A stretch of DNA of 64,000 nt, taken from the NCBI GenBank assembly GCA_963696385.1, contig CAVOKF010000004.1:1107705-1171704 (forward strand). The letters run 5' to 3'. Positions 16,041 through 46,115 of this stretch are shown one piece after another; positions within the stretch are counted from its first letter, which is position 1; each line of letters begins with the position of its first letter. The notes under the pieces were generated by a model. The model searched no databases. It worked only from the letters and a program-made list of their open reading frames with translations, and was not told the DNA's origin. This DNA is from an uncultured delta proteobacterium (GTDB taxonomy: Bacteria > Myxococcota_A > Polyangia > Polyangiales > Polyangiaceae). Both the position numbers and the translations under genes were made by a program.

Positions 16041-16604
16041 CCCGTACCTCGATCCGGCGTCCGGGGCTCTGAAAAACCGTTTTCGGCATTACCGACGAAC
16101 CGACCCTTGAGGCCGCAGAGGCCTCTCTCGTCGCGCTGCGCTCCTACGAACTCGCGCGGCAGCCCATCCCGGGTGCCTTCGATCTCGCGCATCTGCAAGC
16201 CATCCACCGCCACCTGTTCGGCGATGTCTATGCATGGGCGGAGCAGCTTCGCACGATCGACATCGCCAAGGGCGGCAACGCACCACGCTTACATCGCGAC
16301 CGCCGCCGCGCCGATCTTCGCACAGCTCGCGCGCGAGAGGCATTTGACGGGGCTAGCGCCAGCGGCTTTCAGCGGCCGGGCGGCCCACTACCTGGGAGAG
16401 GTCAATGCATTGCACCCGTTTCGCGAAGGCAATGGACGTGCGCAACGCGAGTTCGTGAGTCATCTGGCCCATTCGAACGGCTACTACGTTGCCTGGGAGT
16501 ACATCACCGCTTCGGACATGCTGGAGGCCTCGATCGAAGCCTTCCGAGGCGATGTGTCAAAGCTCGCGGCGATGGTCCACGGCAATCTGAGTCGCAGCGG
16601 TTAG
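16018..16604 (+). pseudogene. Fic/VbhT-like toxin, two apparent frameshifts
   Basis: DPYLDPASGALKN, HLQAIHRHLFGDVYAWA and HPFREGNGRAQR are split across frames. Confidence 0.85.
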
Positions 16605-28424: not shown

Positions 28425-30127
28425 GTGGCTGCTCTCGCGCCCGCCTACGTTCCCCGTCGCCCGACCGAAACGGTCCTGTACGGATTGGTGCGCGAGAATC
28501 TGGAATCGTTTCTCGCGTACGCGCGTGAGAACTACGAGGGAGGGCTACCGCGCTACGTGGAAGCGGAGCTGCGCGCGTACTTGAATTGCGGCGTATTGCG
28601 TGCGGATTTACGCGCTGCCACTGCGACTCATGCGGCCGCGACTTGCTTGTGGCCTTTAGCTGCAAGGGAAGATCTCTCTGCCCCAGTTGCTGCGGCAGGC
28701 GTATGGCCAACACGGCTGCCCACTTGGTCGACCGAGTCTTGCCCGACGTCCCTGTGCGGCAATACGTTCTGTCGCTCCCGTACGAGCTGCGCAAGCTTGC
28801 GGCGTTAAAGGCCGACGTTCTCACAGCCCTGGGCCGCATCTTCGTCGAGGCCATCTTTGCCCGCTACCGCGCTCGCGCCCAGCGCGAGGGCCTCGAGGAT
28901 GCGCAGTGCGGAGCGGTAACCTTTGTTCAACGCTTCGGCAGTCTGAATCTCAACGTGCATTTTCACGTGTTGGTGCTCGATGGCGTCGTGACCCGGGACC
29001 CGGACCGTCGTGTGCTCTTTCATCCGGCGGCCGCTCCGACGCCGGTCGAGTTCGAGGTGCTGGTCGAGCGTGTGATGAACCGCAGCGTGGCGTGGCTGCG
29101 CCGCCACGGCCATGTGCAGGACACGCCGCTCGAAGAGCGCTCGAACGAGCCGCCGGCGCAGACTGCCCTCGACGCGTGCGCGGACATCGCCATGGGCCGC
29201 GGCACAGTCGCAACCTTGTCGAACGACGACGACGGGTCGAAGGACGACGACCGCGAGGCGCGGCCCGACGGGCTCGTCGGCGCGGTCGAGCGAGACGGGT
29301 TTAATGTGCATGCCGGGGTCCGGATCGAAGCGGGCGACCATCTGGGTCGCGAACGACTGGCGCGTTACGGCGCGCGACCTCCGCTCTCGCTCGAGCGACT
29401 TCGCAGGTTGCCCGGCGGGCGGGTGGCCTATCGACTGAAGTACGTCCGTCGCGGCCGAGGCAAGTACAGAATCATGACTGGCCTGGAGTTCATGGCCCGC
29501 TTGAGCGCGATCATTGCGCCGCCTCGGTATCCGTTGGTGCGCTACAGCGGAGTGCTCGGGCCACACTCGAGCTGGCGACGCGACGTGGTGCCGAAGCCGC
29601 GCAAGACGGCTCCCGCCTGCCACCGCGCGCCCACCCCACCGCTGAGCTCGGCCAAGCCGGTCACCGGCGCAATGACGCACCCGGGCTCCGCGCTTCCCGG
29701 GGCGGCGGCGCCGACAGCGGGAAATGTCGAGAGTGCTCCGGCGCCGGCCGCCAGTTCCTCGGCGAAGGCGGGTCTGTCCGCGCTCCCCATCTTCGCGCAT
29801 GGGGGCGAGGTCATCCCGCTCACGCCCAATGTGCTTGCTGTCAGCCACTGGGAACGGCTGCTCGGCGGCGCCATCTACGCGGCCTCGCCGCGCGTGGACT
29901 GGCCCACGCTCTTGAAACGAACGTTTGACGTGGACGTTCTGCAATGTCCGAAGTGCCACGGCCGACTGCGGGTGCTCGCCGTGATCACCGAGCGCGAGCC
30001 GGTGCGCCAGGTCCTCGCCCATCTCGGCCTGCCGACCGAGGCGCCGCCCGTCGCCCGGGCGCGCGACCCGACTGACGACGCGCAAGACCCCGAGCCGTCG
30101 GATCAACTCGAGCTGCAGCTCGCGTGA
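28425..30127 (+). CDS. IS91/ISCR-like Y2 (HUH) transposase, frameshift near 28598
   Basis: Zn-binding CxxC/FSCKGRSLCPSC, RQYVLSLP, QRFGSLNLNVHFH, YGARPP, RYSGVL, C-terminal CPKC. Confidence 0.9.
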
Positions 30128-30193
30128 ACGACCGGCCCCGAGAGCGGCGCCGATGCGGCGCCGCGCGGGCGACGTGCGCTTTGGATATGTTCG

Positions 30194-30301
30194 AAATCGG
30201 TTCGCCGCTCGGTGACAACGGAAGCCCCTAAGACGCGATATGTTTCCGCGCCCGCTTCCGCGGGCTCTTCGTCGACCGACAGCTTTGGGCTTACTACTCG
30301 C
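30194..30301 (+). repeat. dif-like repeat, site B (core 30221-30248, spacer GACGCG)
   Basis: GAAGCCCCTAA-GACGCG-ATATGTTTCCG...CTACTCGC. Confidence 0.88.
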
Positions 30302-30793
30302 CCGCGTCCGTCGCAGCGTCGGGAATGGTGCTTCCTTCGACGGTCGCGGACGCTGAGCAACCGCACGCGAACACCGCAACAAGCAAGATGCCGTGCGCTA
30401 TTCTTCGATCCATCGGAACCACCCTTCCGGTCACGCCCCCCGGCGCTGGCGCGCGCGAGGGTTCTCATCACACTACCCGCGTCTATCCAACTCTTCGAGC
30501 CACTGCGTCGCTGCGGCGACGAAAGCGCGGCCCTCGGCACTCGGCACGATGGATCGCTACGCCGACCGTGCGCCGTTTGTAGCTGGCCCGGTCCCTGAAG
30601 CGCACGAACGCGGTCACGTATTCGTGTGCCTGTCCACCGTTCGGGCCGGCGCCGTCGTAGTAGCGACACGGGGTGGGGCTTCGTCCGCCAGGAAAAAGGC
30701 CGGCCCGGGGGGGTCATCGCCTGCCCTTGCCAATCCGAAGCTCGCTTTCGAGCGTCACGAAGGCCATCGCGGAGCGACGCGCCCCGTTCACGC

Positions 30794-31995: not shown

Positions 31996-32047
31996 CGGTC
32001 GTGGAATTCTAGCACGCGGAATTGGCCTGCGTTTTCGCTGTCGCACG

Positions 32048-32154
32048 GCGAGTACTAAGCCCAAAGTGCGTCGGTCGACGAAGAGCCCGCGGAGGCGGGC
32101 GCGGAAACATATCGCATCTTAGGGGCTTCCGTTGTCACCGAGCGGCGAAAGATT
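32048..32154 (-). repeat. dif-like repeat, site C (core 32102-32129, spacer GATGCG)
   Basis: Near-identical inverted copy of site B. Confidence 0.88.
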
Positions 32155-32350
32155 AGATGAACCGGTGGCGGCGCGTCCTGGACCGCCAGGCACGCCGCGC
32201 GGCACGGGTGCCGCAGCCTCGAGATCGATCGCGGGGCGTCTCGAGAGCAGCCCCCGTGCCGGTCGTCGGTCATCGAAAATAGCGACCGACCTCCCGCTGG
32301 ATTATCCATCCGACACCCCGGCGTGCTCAAAGGCACAAAGCGAAGTGGGG

Positions 32351-35621: not shown

Positions 35622-36836
35622 TTATTCGATGCTTGCTCGGGCGATCAGCTCGTCCGGGCGTTCGTTTAGGAGCTCCGAGCAGGTACCGCCGATGGCGTAC
35701 GACGCGATTTCTTGTTTGAGAACACGCACGAGTGACCCGTCGAGCTCGGATCGAAATATAGCAAAAAGTCGTTCTGCAGGGCCCTCCGGATCCTTCGTGG
35801 CGAACACTACCCGTCGCAGGGATATGTTGTTTCTCAAGCCGGCAGCGATCAGGTACTTGAAGTGCCCGTCAGAGGCTGGAATTGAGAAACCGAGGATACC
35901 GATCCGAGTCGCATCGGTGAGGGCTTTCACCGCGTCGTCCCACACGAAGGCCAATGCGCCGTCGAAGTTTTTCTGCCAGGTCGGCGGAACAATCAAAGGG
36001 ACGTATCGGGCCCCCAAAAGGTCTCGGTACGTCTCGTAATCCTTCAGGAGCCTCGTGTCCGGGATCTGGCTTCGCGGATTATCGGATCCGCTCGGGCGCG
36101 CCCAATTTATCGAGCCGTGCAGTTTGAGCAGTTTGACGCAGCGCTCGTGCGAGGGCCGCTTCTCGTCGTTCGCATCGATCGTACCATAGTTCCAGTCGAT
36201 ACCGAGCGCGGTCAGCGCGGTTTCGATGACCAAGTCGTAGTTGAACGTAATGATCGTAATGCGGCGGCGCGGGTCGTCGGCCCAGACGCGGCCGGTCAAG
36301 AAGGCGTAGGTCAACTCGCTCAGGGAACGGTCGATGATAACGATCGGTTGCTGGGGCGCGTTGATCGGCATGGGCCCGCGCATAGTCGCCGCGATTGTCT
36401 GCGTCGGTTGTTCGTCTGCCACATGCTGCCAGGACGGGGGTGCCGTCCAGCTTGGACCACTGTTTCGAGGAACACCCACTTTTCCGTGTGCAGCGCGAAA
36501 CCCGGCCGAATAGTCGAGAGTCGACGCGATGGCGATCTTGACGTCGTCCATCAGGCCATTGCTTTCGCTGGCGGCTGCGAGACTGAACAGTTCCTCGATG
36601 TTCTCCGGATCCACTTGGACGCGGTAGGCGGCTGACGCGATCTCGTGCCGAAACGCCAAGACGTTCTGTATCGCCCTCTGCTCGCGCTCGCGACCGTCTT
36701 GGTCGTCAAGCCAGTCAAGTGCGTCTCGCATGCGATTGAGAAAGTTCGCGACGACCGGCATGCCTGCGTCGACCGAGGCGCCCGCGCCAAGGATGTAGAC
36801 GACATTGTGATTGTAAAGGTCAGGTCCCATGCCCAT
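35622..36836 (-). CDS. SIR2-like (SIR2_2) domain protein, probable defence NADase
   Basis: ILGAGAS..AGMP, ITFNYD, LKLHGSINW, IVPPT, ILGFS. Confidence 0.85.
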   Translation of the reverse strand: MGMGPDLYNHNVVYILGAGASVDAGMPVVANFLNRMRDALDWLDDQDGREREQRAIQNVLAFRHEIASAAYRVQVDPENIEELFSLAAASESNGLMDDVKIAIASTLDYSAGFRAAHGKVGVPRNSGPSWTAPPSWQHVADEQPTQTIAATMRGPMPINAPQQPIVIIDRSLSELTYAFLTGRVWADDPRRRITIITFNYDLVIETALTALGIDWNYGTIDANDEKRPSHERCVKLLKLHGSINWARPSGSDNPRSQIPDTRLLKDYETYRDLLGARYVPLIVPPTWQKNFDGALAFVWDDAVKALTDATRIGILGFSIPASDGHFKYLIAAGLRNNISLRRVVFATKDPEGPAERLFAIFRSELDGSLVRVLKQEIASYAIGGTCSELLNERPDELIARASIE

Positions 36837-37103
36837 TCGGATCGCGAGCGTAACTGGAGCCGCCGAATCTTGCTGCCGCCGGCGAGTGCCCGGGGCCAAG
36901 GGTCGCCAGCGATCCGGCGAAGGCGATACGCGGATCAGCCGGTGGCGATACGTTCTGTACGGCGCGCTGTCGGGTCACGCAACCGAGAATCGTGGGGCAA
37001 AGCCGAGTCCTCCAGAACCAGTGCCCCAGTGCCCTGTAGTGGGCGGAGCGAACGCCCGGGTCATCTCGGTCATCTCGGAACCGCTGCCCGAGTCAGGCGA
37101 GCT

Positions 37104-37146
37104 CAAATCGGCCGCTCGGTGACAACGGAAGCCCCTAAGACGCGAT
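37104..37146 (+). repeat. dif-like repeat, site F left half (cut by IS4)
   Basis: CAAATCGG...GAAGCCCCTAA-GACGCG-AT followed directly by IS4. Confidence 0.85.
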
Positions 37147-38622
37147 CATAAGTTGGTACTTAGGGATTCGGGATGGCGCTCGCTACCACACAAGTGCGAG
37201 TGGCTCGAGGCCCATAGCGAGACGTCCGCGCTTTCGATCGCGAGCAGGATGAGCGCGGCGCGCGTTGGAATCGAGGAACTTGAGCGCTTCGGCGAGGGCA
37301 CGACGCAATTGGCGCGGTGAGTCGAGGAGGCCGCGGAGGACATCGTCGAAGTAATGCTTGCCGGACGCGGCGGCTCGCTGGGTCGAAAGCTCCACCCCCA
37401 GCGACGCTTCCGCGAAGTGTGCGAGCGAGCGTTTCAGAAGGGCTGCGAGCAGGCTCGCCCATATCATCGCTTTCGCGATAGCGGCCTTGCCCGTATCGAA
37501 GGCATGAAGGTTGGCGTGAGATTTGAACTCTTTGAACAGGAGTTCCACCTGCCAGCGGAGGCGATACAAGCCGGCCACGTCGGCGGCGGAGAAGCGCTTG
37601 CGAGCGAGGTTGCTGTGCAGGTACACGAACGTCTTCGCGTTGCGCTTGCCGCGCTTGTAGATCGCCACAATTCGCCCGCGATACACGAATGAATTCGCCT
37701 GCCATTCGATGTCGAGATCGACCGTGTGGGCCGGAAGCAGGTCCCAGTTCAACTTCTGGCCGAGCAACTTGGGGATGGATTTGCCGGCGCTGTCGAAAGC
37801 GGCCCGAATGGTGGGTCGAATGTTTTTGGTTCCGCGGACGATGAAGGCGCCGCCCGCTTGGTCGACGTCGAAAAAGAATTTTCGCTCCTCGTACCCTCGG
37901 TCGGCCAGAAAGAGCCGCTCGCGAAGACTCGCGGCCTCGGGACGGTAGGTTCGCTCGGTCTCCTTGTCGGCCGTCAGGGCGACGATGCGCACATCGTCTT
38001 GGAGCAGACTCATCGTGACGTGCAGTTCCACGGCGGCAGGCGAGATTTTTGTAAAGCGGCCCGGCCATGTGCCTTTCAAGTCGTCCTTGAGCGCGAACGA
38101 CGTCCCGTCGTGAATGACGATGTCCCGAAAGGTCGACAGTTTGGGGGACACGGCGTGCAGAACCGGCTGGCTCATCTTCTGTACCGTCGCTTCCAGCAGC
38201 ATCCGAAACATCTCTGGAAAGGACGCTTGCGCGAGCCGGTTGTGAAAGGGCTTATATCGCAGCGAAAGGCCCGCGAATTTCCGGAACGTCCGCAGAATAT
38301 CGGCCAACCACTTGGCGTGGCCCGACCCGAGCGTCGACAGCACCGCCACGACCATCGCCAGCGGCATCACCTTGCGCACTCGCCGTAGCCAGCCGCTACG
38401 TCTCGCGATCGCGGTCACCTCCTCCTCGCCGAGTACTTCCGTAAGCCGTTTCGCATACACGCCGACTCCGGCGCGTGTACTGTTTGATCCGTGCATCGGG
38501 GGTCTCCTTTCGCGTTGTCTCACAACAGCGTCTAGAGAATCCCCGATGCCTTTGACTATCCAATTCGTGCACTATGCACGTAAGTGATCGAGATCACTCG
38601 GGAAATAAAGATCCTACCTATG
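37147..38622 (-). mobile_element. IS4 family element
   Basis: IRs CATAAGTTGGTACTT / CATAGGTAGGATCTT (reverse complement). Confidence 0.9.
37183..38496 (-). CDS. IS4 family transposase
   Basis: HDGTSF, LADRGY, YRLRWQVELLFKEFKS (YREK motif). Confidence 0.93.
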   Translation of the reverse strand: MHGSNSTRAGVGVYAKRLTEVLGEEEVTAIARRSGWLRRVRKVMPLAMVVAVLSTLGSGHAKWLADILRTFRKFAGLSLRYKPFHNRLAQASFPEMFRMLLEATVQKMSQPVLHAVSPKLSTFRDIVIHDGTSFALKDDLKGTWPGRFTKISPAAVELHVTMSLLQDDVRIVALTADKETERTYRPEAASLRERLFLADRGYEERKFFFDVDQAGGAFIVRGTKNIRPTIRAAFDSAGKSIPKLLGQKLNWDLLPAHTVDLDIEWQANSFVYRGRIVAIYKRGKRNAKTFVYLHSNLARKRFSAADVAGLYRLRWQVELLFKEFKSHANLHAFDTGKAAIAKAMIWASLLAALLKRSLAHFAEASLGVELSTQRAAASGKHYFDDVLRGLLDSPRQLRRALAEALKFLDSNARRAHPARDRKRGRLAMGLEPLALVW

Positions 38623-38694
38623 AACGGGTTATATGTGACCGCCGCGGTTTCCGCGGCTCTTCGTTGATCGATACGCTTTCGACCGGCTACTCGC
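38623..38694 (+). repeat. dif-like repeat right half (spacer CGGGTT)
   Basis: IS4 end followed by AA-CGGGTT-ATATGTGACCG...CTACTCGC. Confidence 0.85.
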
Positions 38695-38876
38695 TCCTTG
38701 CCTCCCCGCCATCGCGAGGACCGTCATCGACGCCACAACATCGCGACGACCGTCGCATATTCCGGCGTGGCTCAGGCTGTCGTTCCAATGTAGCATCGCG
38801 ACGTGAGGGGACCCTTGTCAATCGCCGTCCAGACCGCGACAGCCGCGGCGCGCAATTGGCGCTGGTAGCTACCGGC

Positions 38877-39557
38877 ATGGCGCTCATCTCCTGCCCGGAC
38901 TGCGGCCGCTCGGTATCGGATGCTGCCGTCGCGTGCGGCGGCTGCGGGCTTCCGATTGCCGGCCATTTCGTTCATCCGCAGTCGCGGCCCCGCTGGTACC
39001 ACACCACTGTTGTCGTCGGGCTGGCGCTGTTGCTTGTCTATCCAATCGGTCTGCTTCTGCTCTGGACCGATCGAAGGACGAAGGGATCCACGAAGGCGTT
39101 GGCCACCGTGCTGTTCGGTTTGCTGTTCATGGCGGTCATGCGCGGCGCATCGTCTGACCACGTCGCTTCGTCGACGAGCGACGGTTCGCGGGGACAATCG
39201 ATCCTTCACGCTATGGTGAACCGGGACCAAGCACCCACCGCCAACACCTACGCCGTGCCGCTTTCCACGCTGCTCGGCGAGTATTCGGATAACGAAGTGC
39301 GCGCTGACGTTCGCTATAAACAACATTGGATTCGGACCTCGGGGATCGTCGGCGAGGTCAAAAAGGACATCACGGACAGTCCCTTTGTGACCATTGGTAA
39401 TGGCAGCGAATTTCAGATCCCGGTTGTCCAGTGCTTGCTTGCGGATGATCAAGTCGCCCGGGCCGCAAGCTTTTCGAAAGGAGATCGGGTCAAGATCGTC
39501 GGGCGAGTCGACGGCCTCATGATGAACGTAATCATGAGGGATTGTCGGTTCGAGTAA
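38877..39557 (+). CDS. Zinc-ribbon + TM + tRNA_anti-like OB-fold protein
   Basis: MALISCPDCG..CGGCG; two TM segments; EYSDNEVRADVRYK...KGDRVKIVG. Confidence 0.75.
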   Translation: MALISCPDCGRSVSDAAVACGGCGLPIAGHFVHPQSRPRWYHTTVVVGLALLLVYPIGLLLLWTDRRTKGSTKALATVLFGLLFMAVMRGASSDHVASSTSDGSRGQSILHAMVNRDQAPTANTYAVPLSTLLGEYSDNEVRADVRYKQHWIRTSGIVGEVKKDITDSPFVTIGNGSEFQIPVVQCLLADDQVARAASFSKGDRVKIVGRVDGLMMNVIMRDCRFE

Positions 39558-39602
39558 CGGGAGGAAGGTGTCACCGGCGGCGACTCACGCTTGCCGACCT
39601 GC

Positions 39603-39712
39603 CAAATCGGTTCGCCGATTCAGCGATAACGAACGCCCCTAAGACGCGATATGTTTCCGCGCCCGCTTCCGCGGCTCTTCGTCGACCGACGCACTTTGGG
39701 CTTACTACTCGC
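39603..39712 (+). repeat. dif-like repeat, site G (core 39632-39659, spacer GACGCG)
   Basis: Full-length copy. Confidence 0.88.
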
Positions 39713-39714
39713 TC

Positions 39715-40287
39715 GTAAAGCGGCCCGGCCATGTGCGTTTCAAGTCGTCCTTGAGCGCGAACGACGTCCCGTCGTGAATGACGATGTCCCGAAAGGTCGA
39801 CAGTTTGGGGGACACGGCGTGAAGAACCGGCTGGCTCATCTTCTGTACCGTCGCTTCCAGCAGCATCCGAAACATCTCTGGAAAGGACGTCTTCGCGAGC
39901 CGGTTGTGAAAGGGCTTATATCGCAGCGAAATGCCCGCGAATCTCCGGAACGTCCGCAGAATATCGGCCAACCACTTGGCCTGGCCCGACCCGAGCGTGG
40001 ACAGCACCGCCACGACCATCGCCAGCGGCATCACCTTGCGCACGCGCCGTAGCCAGCCGCTACGTCTCGCGATCGCGGTCACCTGCTCCTCGCCGAGTAC
40101 TTCCGTAAGCCGTTTCGCATACACGCCGACTTCGGCGCGTGTACCGTTCGATCCGTGCATCGGGGTCTCCTTTCGCGTTGTCCCACAACACCGCGTCTAG
40201 AGAATCCCCGATGCCTTTGACTATCCAATTCGTGCACTATGCACGTAAGTGATCGACATCACTCGAGAAATAAAGATCCTACCTATG
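39715..40287 (-). mobile_element. Truncated second IS4 copy (5' end only)
   Basis: Highly similar to 38051-38622; cut at the site G right end. Confidence 0.9.
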
Positions 40288-40335
40288 ATAACCCGTTAGG
40301 GGCTTCCGCCGTCGCTGTAATGGCGAACCGATTTG
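40288..40335 (-). repeat. dif-like repeat, site H left half (spacer CGGGTT)
   Basis: Reverse complement reads CAAATCGGTTCGCC...GAAGCCCCTAA-CGGGTT-AT followed by IS4. Confidence 0.85.
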
Positions 40336-40846
40336 GTATCCACTGCACGAATCGGCGAGTAGCCGGTCGTTGAGCAGTTCGCCAATTTGGTCCGCCTTCA
40401 GCTCGAACCTCCCGTTGGCGGTTGGCCCATAAGAAGTCCTATGTGAAGACGGCTCCCTTGCCAGCTCGCGCCCGCTTGCACGGCCTATCCGCCCGAGTCG
40501 TCGCCGAAAGAAGGGCAGTCCACGAGCCGCTGGCGAGAGTTCTTAGGCCGCTCGCCGCTCAAGCAGGGCCTGCTGGCAGCAAGGCCCTTGCGCCAGCTCC
40601 ACGGTGCGCATCTCTTGGTCGACGACTTGCAGGGACATCAGGGGTCGAAGTGTGCCTGCACGCAAGCGTCTGCCGGGAAACACCGCGCTAATGGTGAGAA
40701 GCCCAACAGAATCAAGTAGGTCGTAGAGGAAGCACCTCAAAAACATCCCCATTTAGCGTTTCGCGAAATACCTGGCTGCGCTCTTGCATCTGCAAAACCG
40801 AGCGGGGCGGTGGATACCGATCAGTGACCGCAAGGGAGTGACTCCG

Positions 40847-44198: not shown

Positions 44199-46115
44199 CT
44201 GAAGTTCCTGAACCAAAATCGCCGAAGTTCGCGATCTTGCTGTGGAATCGGCAAAATTGACCCGAAATGTAGGCATGTAAACAGATAGAAATAGCTTTCC
44301 ATTATCGATTCGATGTGCATGATGCGGAGGCATGTACATCGCAACCGTGCCGAACCGCGGCTCTCCACCGGCGATCCTGCTGCGCGAGTCGTATCGAGAG
44401 GGCGGACGGGTCAAGTCGCGCACGCTGGCGAACCTGTCGTCGTTGACGGAAAAGCAGGTGGAGGGGATGCGGCGAGCGCTCCGCGGGGAGCCCTTGTTTG
44501 GCCCGGACGGGCCGATCCGAAAGGTGCGCGACCAAAGCCACGGTGCGGTCGACGCCGTTCGGCAAGTCATTCGCAAGTTGGGGCTCGAGGTCCTCATCGA
44601 CCGACAACCAAGCCGCCAGCGCGATCTGGTGATGGCCCTGTTGGTGGCGCGCATCACCGATGCCCAGAGCAAGCTCGCGACGACGAGGGCCTGGAAGACC
44701 ACGACCCTGCCCGAAGACCTCGGGATCGCGGATGCGACCGAAGATGACCTGTACGACGCCATGGATTGGCTCTTCGAGCGGCAGGACGCGATCGAGAAGA
44801 AGTTGGCGACGCGTCACCTGCGCCAGCAAGGGTTGGTGCTCTACGATCTGTCATCGAGCTATTTTGAAGGACACCAATGTCCGCTTGCCAAGTTCGGATA
44901 CAACCGCGATGGCAAGAAGGGCAAGCTGCAGGTCAACTATGGCCTTCTCACCGATGAACGGGGCTGTCCCATTGCGGTCCAGGTTTACGAGGGAAACGCA
45001 TCCGATTCGACGACGCTCCTCGACCAGGTGGAGCGTGTTCGATCCGACTTCGGGATTGACGGATTCGTGATTGTGGGTGACCGCGGGATGATCACGGAGA
45101 AACAGATTTCGTCGCTTCGCAAAACCGGTGGGATGACCTGGGTTACCGCGCTCAAGAGCGGTCGCATTCGATCCCTCGTGCACTCGGGCGTTCTGCAACT
45201 CGGACTCTTCGACGAACGCAATCTGTTTTCCGTGCGGGACCCAAAACTTGCCGGTGAGCGGTTGATCGCATGCAAGAACCACGATCTCGCACGATTGCGC
45301 GCACACAAGCGCCAGAGCCTTGTCGACGCGACACGCAAAGAACTCGACGCGGTGCAGAGAATTGTGGCTCGCGGAAAGCTGGTGGGCAAAGCAGCGATCG
45401 GGCTACGGATCGGAAAAGTGATCAACAAGCATAAGGTGGCCAAGCACTTCTTACTCGAAATCCATGATTCCACATTCGAGTATCGCCTCCGCGAGGATCG
45501 CATCGCAGAGGAGGCAGCACTCGACGGCGTATACGTGATTCGTACGTCCTTGAGCCAAGAGTCGACCAGCGACGAACAGGCCGTTCGCCATTACAAGAAG
45601 CTCGCGAATGTCGAACGCGCATTCCGATCCATCAAGACGATCGACTTGAAGGTGCGCCCCATTCACCACCACTTGGAAAACCGAGTCCGAGCGCACATCT
45701 TCCTGTGCACGCTCGCTTTCTACGTGGAGTGGCACATGCGCGAAGCGTGGCGACCGGTCCTCTTCTCGGACGAGGACCAGGCTGCCAAGAACACGAGAGA
45801 CCCGGTCGCGCCGGCCACCCGGTCGCCCGGTGCACTCGATAAGGTCGCCACCAAGCGAAGCGAGGACGGGGCGCCCGTCCACAGCTTCCGTACCCTTCTC
45901 GCCGATCTCGCCACGATCACCCGAAGCACCTTCGCGCCCGTCGGAGCCGACAACGAAGGCCAGACTTTCACCATGCTGACCGTCCCGTCACCCGAGCAAG
46001 CGAGAGCCCTCCAGCTACTTGAAGCCATCGCCGTGTAGGCAGTAACTCAGGCCGCGATTTCGACGGGTCCAGGGAAAATAGGCCGAATTGTGTCCCGGCG
46101 GGCGGGGAACTTCAG
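44199..46115 (+). mobile_element. IS1634 family element
   Basis: IRs CTGAAGTTCC / GGAACTTCAG; 6-bp TSD GTTAGC. Confidence 0.93.
44332..46038 (+). CDS. IS1634 transposase
   Basis: LYDLSSSYFEG, GYNRDGK, VGDRGM, YKKLANVERAFR, RPIHH. Confidence 0.93.
   Translation: MYIATVPNRGSPPAILLRESYREGGRVKSRTLANLSSLTEKQVEGMRRALRGEPLFGPDGPIRKVRDQSHGAVDAVRQVIRKLGLEVLIDRQPSRQRDLVMALLVARITDAQSKLATTRAWKTTTLPEDLGIADATEDDLYDAMDWLFERQDAIEKKLATRHLRQQGLVLYDLSSSYFEGHQCPLAKFGYNRDGKKGKLQVNYGLLTDERGCPIAVQVYEGNASDSTTLLDQVERVRSDFGIDGFVIVGDRGMITEKQISSLRKTGGMTWVTALKSGRIRSLVHSGVLQLGLFDERNLFSVRDPKLAGERLIACKNHDLARLRAHKRQSLVDATRKELDAVQRIVARGKLVGKAAIGLRIGKVINKHKVAKHFLLEIHDSTFEYRLREDRIAEEAALDGVYVIRTSLSQESTSDEQAVRHYKKLANVERAFRSIKTIDLKVRPIHHHLENRVRAHIFLCTLAFYVEWHMREAWRPVLFSDEDQAAKNTRDPVAPATRSPGALDKVATKRSEDGAPVHSFRTLLADLATITRSTFAPVGADNEGQTFTMLTVPSPEQARALQLLEAIAV

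Follow-up and report, generated by a model that had tools for sequence, protein, structure and literature searches.

The window analyzed here, a 64,000-nt stretch of a soil myxobacterium, an uncultured delta proteobacterium (contig CAVOKF010000004.1 of assembly GCA_963696385.1), contains an IS4-family insertion sequence (IS) whose ends lie exactly in the middle of repeats resembling dif, the site of chromosome dimer resolution. This arrangement raises the question of whether the repeat, or a recombinase acting on it, directs the insertions, or whether their register reflects a preference of the element itself. Our analysis, in which sites outside the window are given as contig:position, identifies the element as a new member of the IS4 family with a defined palindromic target, for which the middle of the dif-like unit is a strong, non-exclusive hot spot.

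An IS4-family element within dif-like units

IS copy 1 (37147..38622, minus strand) is 1476 bp long, is one of 12 full-length copies in the genome (94-100% identity), and carries a single transposase gene of 446 amino acids (minus strand, 37183-38523). The transposase contains the Pfam domain DDE_Tnp_1 (PF01609; 64.4 bits, cut-off 23), passes the NCBIfam model NF033592 'IS4 family transposase' (183.1 bits versus a cut-off of 115), and has the Y-(2)-R-(3)-E-(6)-K (YREK) motif (YRLRWQVELLFKEFK, residue 320, Y320) by which the IS4 family is defined in the family survey (PMC2266710). The IS ends form imperfect inverted repeats (CATAAGTTGG... / ...CCTACCTATG), both starting with 5'-CA (CATAAGTTGG... 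and, as the reverse complement, CATAGGTAGG...). With a DDE_Tnp_1-type transposase, the YREK motif, a duplication of ~10 bp, a lone open reading frame (ORF) and 5'-CA inverted repeats, the element has the features of the IS4 family. Within the family, CAT and a T at position 15 on both ends, the 10-bp duplication and the length of 1476 bp agree with the entry for the ISH8 subgroup in Table 1 of the survey (ends CAT-----------T, 10-bp duplication, 1400-1800 bp; PMC2266710). The transposase is 34-40% identical to those of the ISPa13/ISApu1/ISApu2 type and 28-30% identical to ISH8 transposases, as annotated in plasmid records. Given this low identity to every named element, the end and duplication features suggest a placement in the ISH8 subgroup.

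All three IS junctions of the window fall in one register of the repeat core, CCCCT|AA-N6-AT|ATGT (vertical bars mark the cuts). On the left, AAGACGCGAT at 37137-37146 directly precedes copy 1, which begins at 37147 with CATAAG and terminates as ...CCTACCTATG at 38622, followed by AACGGGTTAT at 38623-38632. Copy 2 terminates with the same ...CCTACCTATG at 40287, and is followed at 40288-40297 by ATAACCCGTT, the reverse complement of AACGGGTTAT. The left flank of copy 1 (37103..37146, plus strand) is the left half of a 112-bp dif-like unit of the GACGCG-spacer type, ending with AAGACGCGAT (nhmmer match C4:1144807-1144850, profile 5-53). Its right flank (38623..38696, plus strand) is the right half of a different unit of the CGGGTT-spacer type, starting with AACGGGTTAT (C4:1146328-1146400, profile 45-117) and identical at 72/72 positions to the right flank of a cleanly duplicated copy at C8:878418. 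Copy 2 (39717..40287, minus strand) is a remnant of IS positions 905-1476 (BLAST, 96.7% over 575 bp) that keeps the N-terminal part of the transposase (ORF 39705-40160); a table of informative sites assigns it to a different and more divergent lineage than that of copy 1. It is followed by the reversed left half of a unit of the CGGGTT type, which starts with ATAACCCGTT (40288..40337, minus strand; C4:1148041-1147993, profile 4-52) and is identical at 48/48 positions to a flank of the cleanly duplicated copy at C7:1397665. On its other side, position 905 of the remnant is abutted by the right end, ...CTACTCGCTC, of an intact, unoccupied GACGCG-type unit (39602..39716, plus strand; nhmmer, 125 bits).

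These junctions are those reported in the initial annotation, which also observed correctly that both CGGGTT-bearing halves attach to the same IS end of two different copies, here identified as the transposase-start side, and that the flanks of copy 1 are unequal (GACGCG on the left versus CGGGTT on the right, both forward). Its reading of the shared 10-mer as the two halves of one split site has to be given up. CGGGTT characterizes a subfamily of the units: an intact example lies at C4:52905, the one-base variant CGAGTT occurs at C1:407003, and units of this type are occupied by the IS with clean duplications at C6:108748, C7:1397665 and C8:878418. Since a single insertion puts one half on each IS end, and homologous recombination between IS copies never switches ends, the CGGGTT halves of the window stem from two separate, oppositely oriented insertions, each into a different unit of the CGGGTT type. 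Rearrangement after insertion, as the annotation supposed, did take place: the unequal flanks of copy 1 fit homologous recombination between IS copies, which together with deletions would account for these flanks and for the truncation of copy 2. No reciprocal product of such a recombination was detected. When contigs of four public metagenome runs were compared with 36700-39600, none spanned the locus without the IS; in these runs the IS is multi-copy with many different flanks, and contigs with unoccupied GACGCG- and CGGGTT-type units are present.

To define the unit, a profile was built from 30 regex-defined copies and searched against the 6.94-Mb genome with nhmmer. The 97 matches correspond to ~85 loci, 55 of them near full length. 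The unit is ~112 bp long with sharp ends (CAAATCGG... and ...CTACTCGC) and comprises several subfamilies whose left and right arms are mosaic; the units cluster in islands amounting to 11% of the genome. The cores read GCCCCTAA-N6-ATATGTGACC or GCCCCTAA-N6-ATATGTTTCC, with a 6-bp spacer between two ~11-bp arms, and closely match a candidate chromosomal dif at C3:50570-50593 (GCCCCTAA-GGAACA-TTATGTGAAC). This candidate is single-copy outside the units and lies between convergent ORFs, close to the cumulative GC-skew maximum of its contig. Candidate counterparts, mostly single-copy, were found in 12 other genomes of the same genus (G010 and G027 among them are unpublished), with conserved arms and a variable spacer; a backwards control pattern of the candidate gave 0 matches in the same 12 genomes. 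These comparisons support the annotation of the core as dif-like. The genome also has XerC-like (310 bits) and XerD-like (314 bits) genes, identified by their best NCBIfam matches, both just below the equivalog cut-offs; the XerD-like recombinase passes the subfamily model NF001399. Together with the mosaic arms, these genes are the only hints, and indirect ones, that the units may undergo Xer recombination.

Independent insertions across the genome

BLAST detected 20 IS loci in the genome, 12 full-length and 8 partial (one 51-bp match of 84% identity was left out as spurious). Ten of the 20 have at least one end inside a unit, always in the register T|AA-N6-AT|A, and the other 10 lie in unrelated DNA. 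Perfect 10-bp duplications flank 9 of the 12 full-length copies, four in units and five elsewhere. The four clean duplications in units (ATCGCGTCTT, ATAACCCGTT twice and AACGGGTTAT) consist of AA, the spacer and AT, with cuts 2 bp inside each arm, and are thus centered on the 6-bp spacer as had been proposed from the window. Relative to the unit, the copies of this genome divide into 3 forward and 7 reverse, and those of other contigs into 2 and 2, which gives 5 and 9 in total. Sequence past the unit is unrelated between copies, so the IS copies are not segmental duplications. Furthermore, an orthologous pair of empty and filled sites is available: in the sister genome G003, a junction ...CCTACCTATG|AAGATGCGATATGTG is followed by 1500 bp that align at 99.6% to window positions 32120->30620. 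The unit occupied in G003, with the IS in the usual register, is therefore empty here (32046..32159, minus strand, GATGCG spacer).

These data refute the explanation that the repeat halves are part of the IS, as longer ends, or an assembly artefact. Its single point in favor is that IS and unit co-occur in the same two genomes; among 100 relatives searched, the only further genome with both was G003, a member of the same genus. Against it, 10 loci have no unit sequence at the IS ends, ~55 near-full units are without the IS, and the same junction types occur in independent public assemblies and runs.

A different explanation is that few true unit insertions took place, that the ~45-65 bp arms then allowed homologous recombination or gene conversion to carry the IS from unit to unit, and that insertions elsewhere were purged by selection, inflating the apparent preference. 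Within one spacer type and orientation, the duplications are identical and the unit arms near-identical; the IS copies are mosaic, and window copy 1 has recombinant flanks. Also, 4 of 6 non-unit insertions with reconstructed empty sites are intergenic, as expected if genic ones had been lost. However, the unit-borne copies of this genome comprise two IS lineages ~6% apart, two spacer types and two orientations, in at least seven combinations that conversion cannot turn into one another. At least seven unit insertions in this genome are hence independent, not derivable from one another by recombination. G003 and metagenome contigs contain additional spacer variants, with a third type, GATGCG, at IS junctions in G003 and a metagenome contig. 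As described below, these seven events alone still exceed the expectation, and we regard spread and selective survival as a possible but rather doubtful account of the unit insertions.

Several further observations concern the IS copies themselves. Six IS-free units contain a tandem duplication of the exact IS target stretch (C2:103534-103659, C4:46441-46566, C2:74009-74131, C4:81331-81439, C6:60041-60148 and C7:1383863-1383983): two 10-mers are separated by T in three, by A in one and by AT in one, and the sixth is degenerate. The duplications measure 11, 11 and 12 bp, respectively, on the same dyad, and look like excision footprints or longer staggers, from this IS or another element. In four truncated IS copies, the break coincides precisely with an outer end of either a unit or a short fragment of a unit left arm (CAAATCGG... 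in three, ...CTACTCGCTC in one), at window 39716/39717, C4:48590/48591, C2:103658/103659 and C6:107548/107549, with IS break points 905, 1096, 1287 and 1215. Genome-wide, the IS remnants keep the transposase-start end in 7 cases and the other end in only 1. The outer unit ends seem to be recombinogenic by themselves. Finally, a full IS copy at C7:1434134-1436381 is flanked by an exact 386-bp direct duplication (386/386), one edge of which is the usual unit register. This duplication is of the same kind as the very long target duplications of IS1634 and IS1549 that the family survey cites (PMC2266710).

Target consensus and unit use beyond it

To examine insertion sites beyond this genome, exact 18-nt IS ends were searched in a one-genome-per-species collection and JGI metagenomes. 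This search returned 43 true IS ends at 29 distinct junctions, 4 in units and 25 elsewhere. On the flank tabulation suggested in the initial annotation, its targeting inference is not borne out: 10 of 20 loci here and 25 of 29 public junctions are in unrelated sequence, the other 10 loci being at the unit register. Six public loci were long enough to look for duplications around a complete copy; in five, no recognizable far end was present at the expected distance, and in the sixth (L117) the flanks were mismatched.

A target consensus was derived from 24 of the 25 non-unit public junctions (the one left out duplicates a site in this genome), with counts symmetrized for positions 1-10. The non-unit sites give the palindrome (C/T)T|A-R-N6-Y-T|A. 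Position 1 is A and position 10 is T in 39/48 each; position 2 has G 24 times and A 18 times out of 48, mirrored at position 9 by C (24) and T (18). Immediately outside the cuts, T precedes in 18/24 and A follows in 18/24. In this genome, 4 of 6 clean non-unit sites match T|A-N8-T|A, a pattern with only 1191 occurrences in 6.94 Mb, 49 of them in units. On the position-weight model, unit cores with T|AA score 5.3-6.3 and the candidate dif 5.9, and only 1621 genome positions reach 5 or more; unit subfamilies with an A|AAG core score 0.4-1.8 and carry no IS. Since the preference T|AR-N6-YT|A is found at unrelated sites, it explains the fixed register by itself, and the position of the IS is no independent evidence that the spacer is the functional center of the repeat, as the annotation had taken it to be. 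For the copy at C7:1416005, a tRNA gene was considered as the target because of a T-arm-like flank; ARAGORN detected no tRNA on either the reconstructed empty site or the occupied site.

We consider it fairly probable that an active IS4-family element with a palindromic preference of its own uses the dif-like units as a recurrent, register-exact and non-exclusive hot spot, in either orientation. Its staggered cuts are 10 bp apart, and its target, (C/T)T|A-R-N6-Y-T|A, consists of two CTAR-like half-sites separated by one helical turn. The genome has 66% G+C, and TA is scarce. The unit core, GCCCCT|AA-spacer-AT|ATGT, offers TAA and (T/A)TA at the inner arm ends, like any Xer-type site. As these lie exactly 6 bp apart, the cuts fall 2 bp inside the arms and the duplication is AA, spacer and AT, so that the register follows from the element's own 10-bp-staggered preference. 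Near-identical units are numerous in mobile-element-rich, mostly dispensable islands where IS copies also reside, and this abundance would make them a recurrent hot spot in the same register in both orientations. From the shared consensus, the target preference probably resides in the transposase.

How far this preference accounts for unit use was estimated by weighting every genome position with an additive position-weight model from the 24 sites. The expected share of insertions in units is 0.9% for the whole genome, 2.9% for crude non-coding DNA, 6.9% for the islands and 12% for island non-coding DNA, the last being the best-placed of these null models. Units in fact hold 10 of the 20 loci, and 10 of 17 when only islands are counted (binomial tail versus 12%, 7e-6); with provably independent events only, 7 of 14 are in units (tail 7e-4).

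Several points weigh against the reading we favor. The additive model underpredicts unit use, with 1-12% expected and 50-59% observed. The island control is partly circular, because the units, including some split by the IS, served to define the islands, and the non-coding mask is a crude ORF and third-codon-position G+C (GC3) rule rather than the output of a gene caller. The unit is only a half-perfect match to the consensus, having A instead of Y at position 9, and the absence of the IS from ~10 A|AAG units versus 10 in ~58 T|AA units is not statistically significant alone. The sufficiency of the preference on naked DNA is also presumed. Several sources of the excess are conceivable: recognition of sequence or shape that is non-additive, local hopping, survivorship, units converting one another, or a unit-bound protein; under the reading we favor, the first three would apply.

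The last of these sources corresponds to protein-assisted targeting, in which XerC/XerD or another unit-bound protein would bend or mark the core and the transposase would prefer bent or bound DNA. Xer-type complexes bend DNA at the spacer, and the cuts are symmetric about it; the core is close to the candidate chromosomal dif, XerC-like and XerD-like recombinases are encoded in the genome, and units are used ~5- to 50-fold above the additive model. Meanwhile, the insertions occur in both orientations (5 forward and 9 reverse), and at least half of the copies are in non-dif-like DNA that has only the TAR/YTA ends in common. Position 12 is G or A at the non-unit sites, with T, as in dif, in only 1/24. 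Furthermore, dif-like units without T before the cut are never used, and the single ORF of the IS leaves no dedicated targeting protein. We judge protein-assisted targeting unlikely. From the site- or recombinase-directed targeting proposed in the initial annotation, there remain the recurrence, the exact register and the excess over the model; the use of both orientations and the element's own target consensus speak against it. A related suggestion, which we find similarly improbable, is that the IS evolved to exploit Xer sites: its preference would be the inner core of dif, and an Xer-bent spacer presented to the transposase would explain the 5- to 50-fold excess. If true, each insertion would split and silence a dif-like unit, modulating Xer-driven shuffling of island modules in this myxobacterial lineage.

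A second, unrelated IS of 1917 bp (window 44199-46115; C6:97156-99072) encodes a 568-residue DDE_Tnp_1 protein. Its duplications are 6 bp long with the consensus NTTAGN (GTTAGG, GTTAGC, CTTAGG, ATTAGA), and one of the four full-length copies lies within a unit, interrupting it at CCTAAG. The TA-containing core thus attracts more than one element.

Units, neighboring genes and related systems

The units have further associations of their own. At 6/6 loci, an IS91-family transposase gene (Y2_Tnp + Zn_Tnp_IS91) is followed ~68 bp past its stop codon by a dif-like unit in the same orientation (window 28586-30127 with the unit at 30192-30303, C4:36604-38314, C2:129999-131608, C6:129108-130826, C7:1399142-1399591 and C7:1420973-1421707). 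Among four copies compared, homology stops at the right end of the unit, and the adjoining units are of different subfamilies; the unit may be the element's own end or a preferred neighbor. Of 101 genomes searched, only 2 contain the ~85-copy, 112-bp unit that is tied to this IS91-like element. Five unit right halves (C6:58555, C7:94438, C2:119384, C6:48246 and C2:75396) are joined at the core to another conserved left arm, ...CAATCGCCTATTATT|TATGTGAC, which reaches ~160-400 bp upstream; these hybrids have the look of products of site-specific recombination. We rejected an integron attC or other hairpin site as the identity of the unit: RNAalifold with DNA parameters gave no conserved structure for 55 copies (-0.6 and 0.0 by strand). 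The whole window had 0 Rfam matches at gathering thresholds. A cassette-like layout of an ORF followed by a unit found no support. By a crude ORF filter, a co-oriented ORF of high GC3 ends no more than 150 nt upstream in 12/55 units, and a convergent ORF lies downstream also in 12/55.

The window from 1 to 64000 is a mobile-element-rich island with transposase genes of IS66 (two sets), IS21 IstB, IS110-type, IS630-type (DDE_3), Mu-like and IS91-like elements. Between two units, an ORF at 38574..39557 (plus strand) encodes a tRNA_anti-like (OB-fold) domain (PF12869, 67 bits, residues 176-324); its true start is probably downstream of 38623. Two other genes beside the IS encode a SIR2_2 domain (35622-36899) and a Fic domain (16107-16604). 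A Pfam scan found no tyrosine recombinase among the 51 ORFs of the window; PF00589 has 31 matches elsewhere in the genome.

Palindromic target preferences are a property of IS10/Tn10 and of IS4 itself. In other families, IS1397/ISKpn1 insert into bacterial interspersed mosaic elements (BIMEs) and IS110-type elements into repetitive extragenic palindromic (REP) sequences, with exact register and near-exclusively for the repeat. The present element resembles these in its register-exact insertion into an interspersed intergenic repeat, and differs from them in accepting many sites besides the repeat, which for it is a hot spot. Unlike those of IS231A, IS10 and IS4, its consensus is (C/T)T|AR-N6-YT|A, and its most-used target is a repeated dif-like unit.

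Duplications of ~10 bp are a hallmark of the IS4 family, for which the 2008 survey describes insertion specificity in IS231 and, in the target arms, in some elements of the IS4/IS4Sa subgroups (PMC2266710). IS231A, a member of this family, and the present element both have one DDE/YREK transposase, duplicate about one helical turn of target DNA and show hot spots that arise from a symmetric consensus. The element likewise shares with the ISH8 subgroup, with which ISPa13, ISPa12, ISApu1 and ISApu2 of the plasmid records are grouped here, the 5'-CAT ends, T15, the 10-bp duplication and a size within 1400-1800 bp. However, no apparent target specificity is recorded in that survey for ISH8-subgroup insertions (PMC2266710), whereas the symmetric consensus is clear here.

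The nearest parallel at Xer-type sites is the IS1202 family (ISAjo2, ISAba71, ISAba32), described as targeting pdif/dif sites in Acinetobacter (PMC10132070). Both show repeated insertion at multi-copy Xer-type sites. In that description, IS1202-type elements insert outside the site at a distance of 5 bp from the XerC arm, keep a single orientation, duplicate 5 bp and have a TnsB-like transposase (PMC10132070); the element studied here uses the site center in both orientations, with 10-bp duplications and an IS4-family transposase, and uses unrelated sites about as often. A search of the open-access literature, judged by title and abstract, found no IS4-family element inside a dif site among the papers listed, which are on Acinetobacter plasmids; this does not prove absence.

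The element thus provides a defined symmetric target for an IS with features of the ISH8 subgroup. For annotators, it is a caution that an intrinsic preference for a TA-rich palindrome can, in a high-G+C genome poor in TA, mimic recombinase-directed targeting of Xer sites; register-exact insertion alone is no proof that a repeat, or a protein on the repeat, directs the insertion. What exceeds the sequence model is a testable residue. The units themselves, with ~85 copies, a core matching the candidate dif and a link to an IS91-like element, may be the more interesting object.

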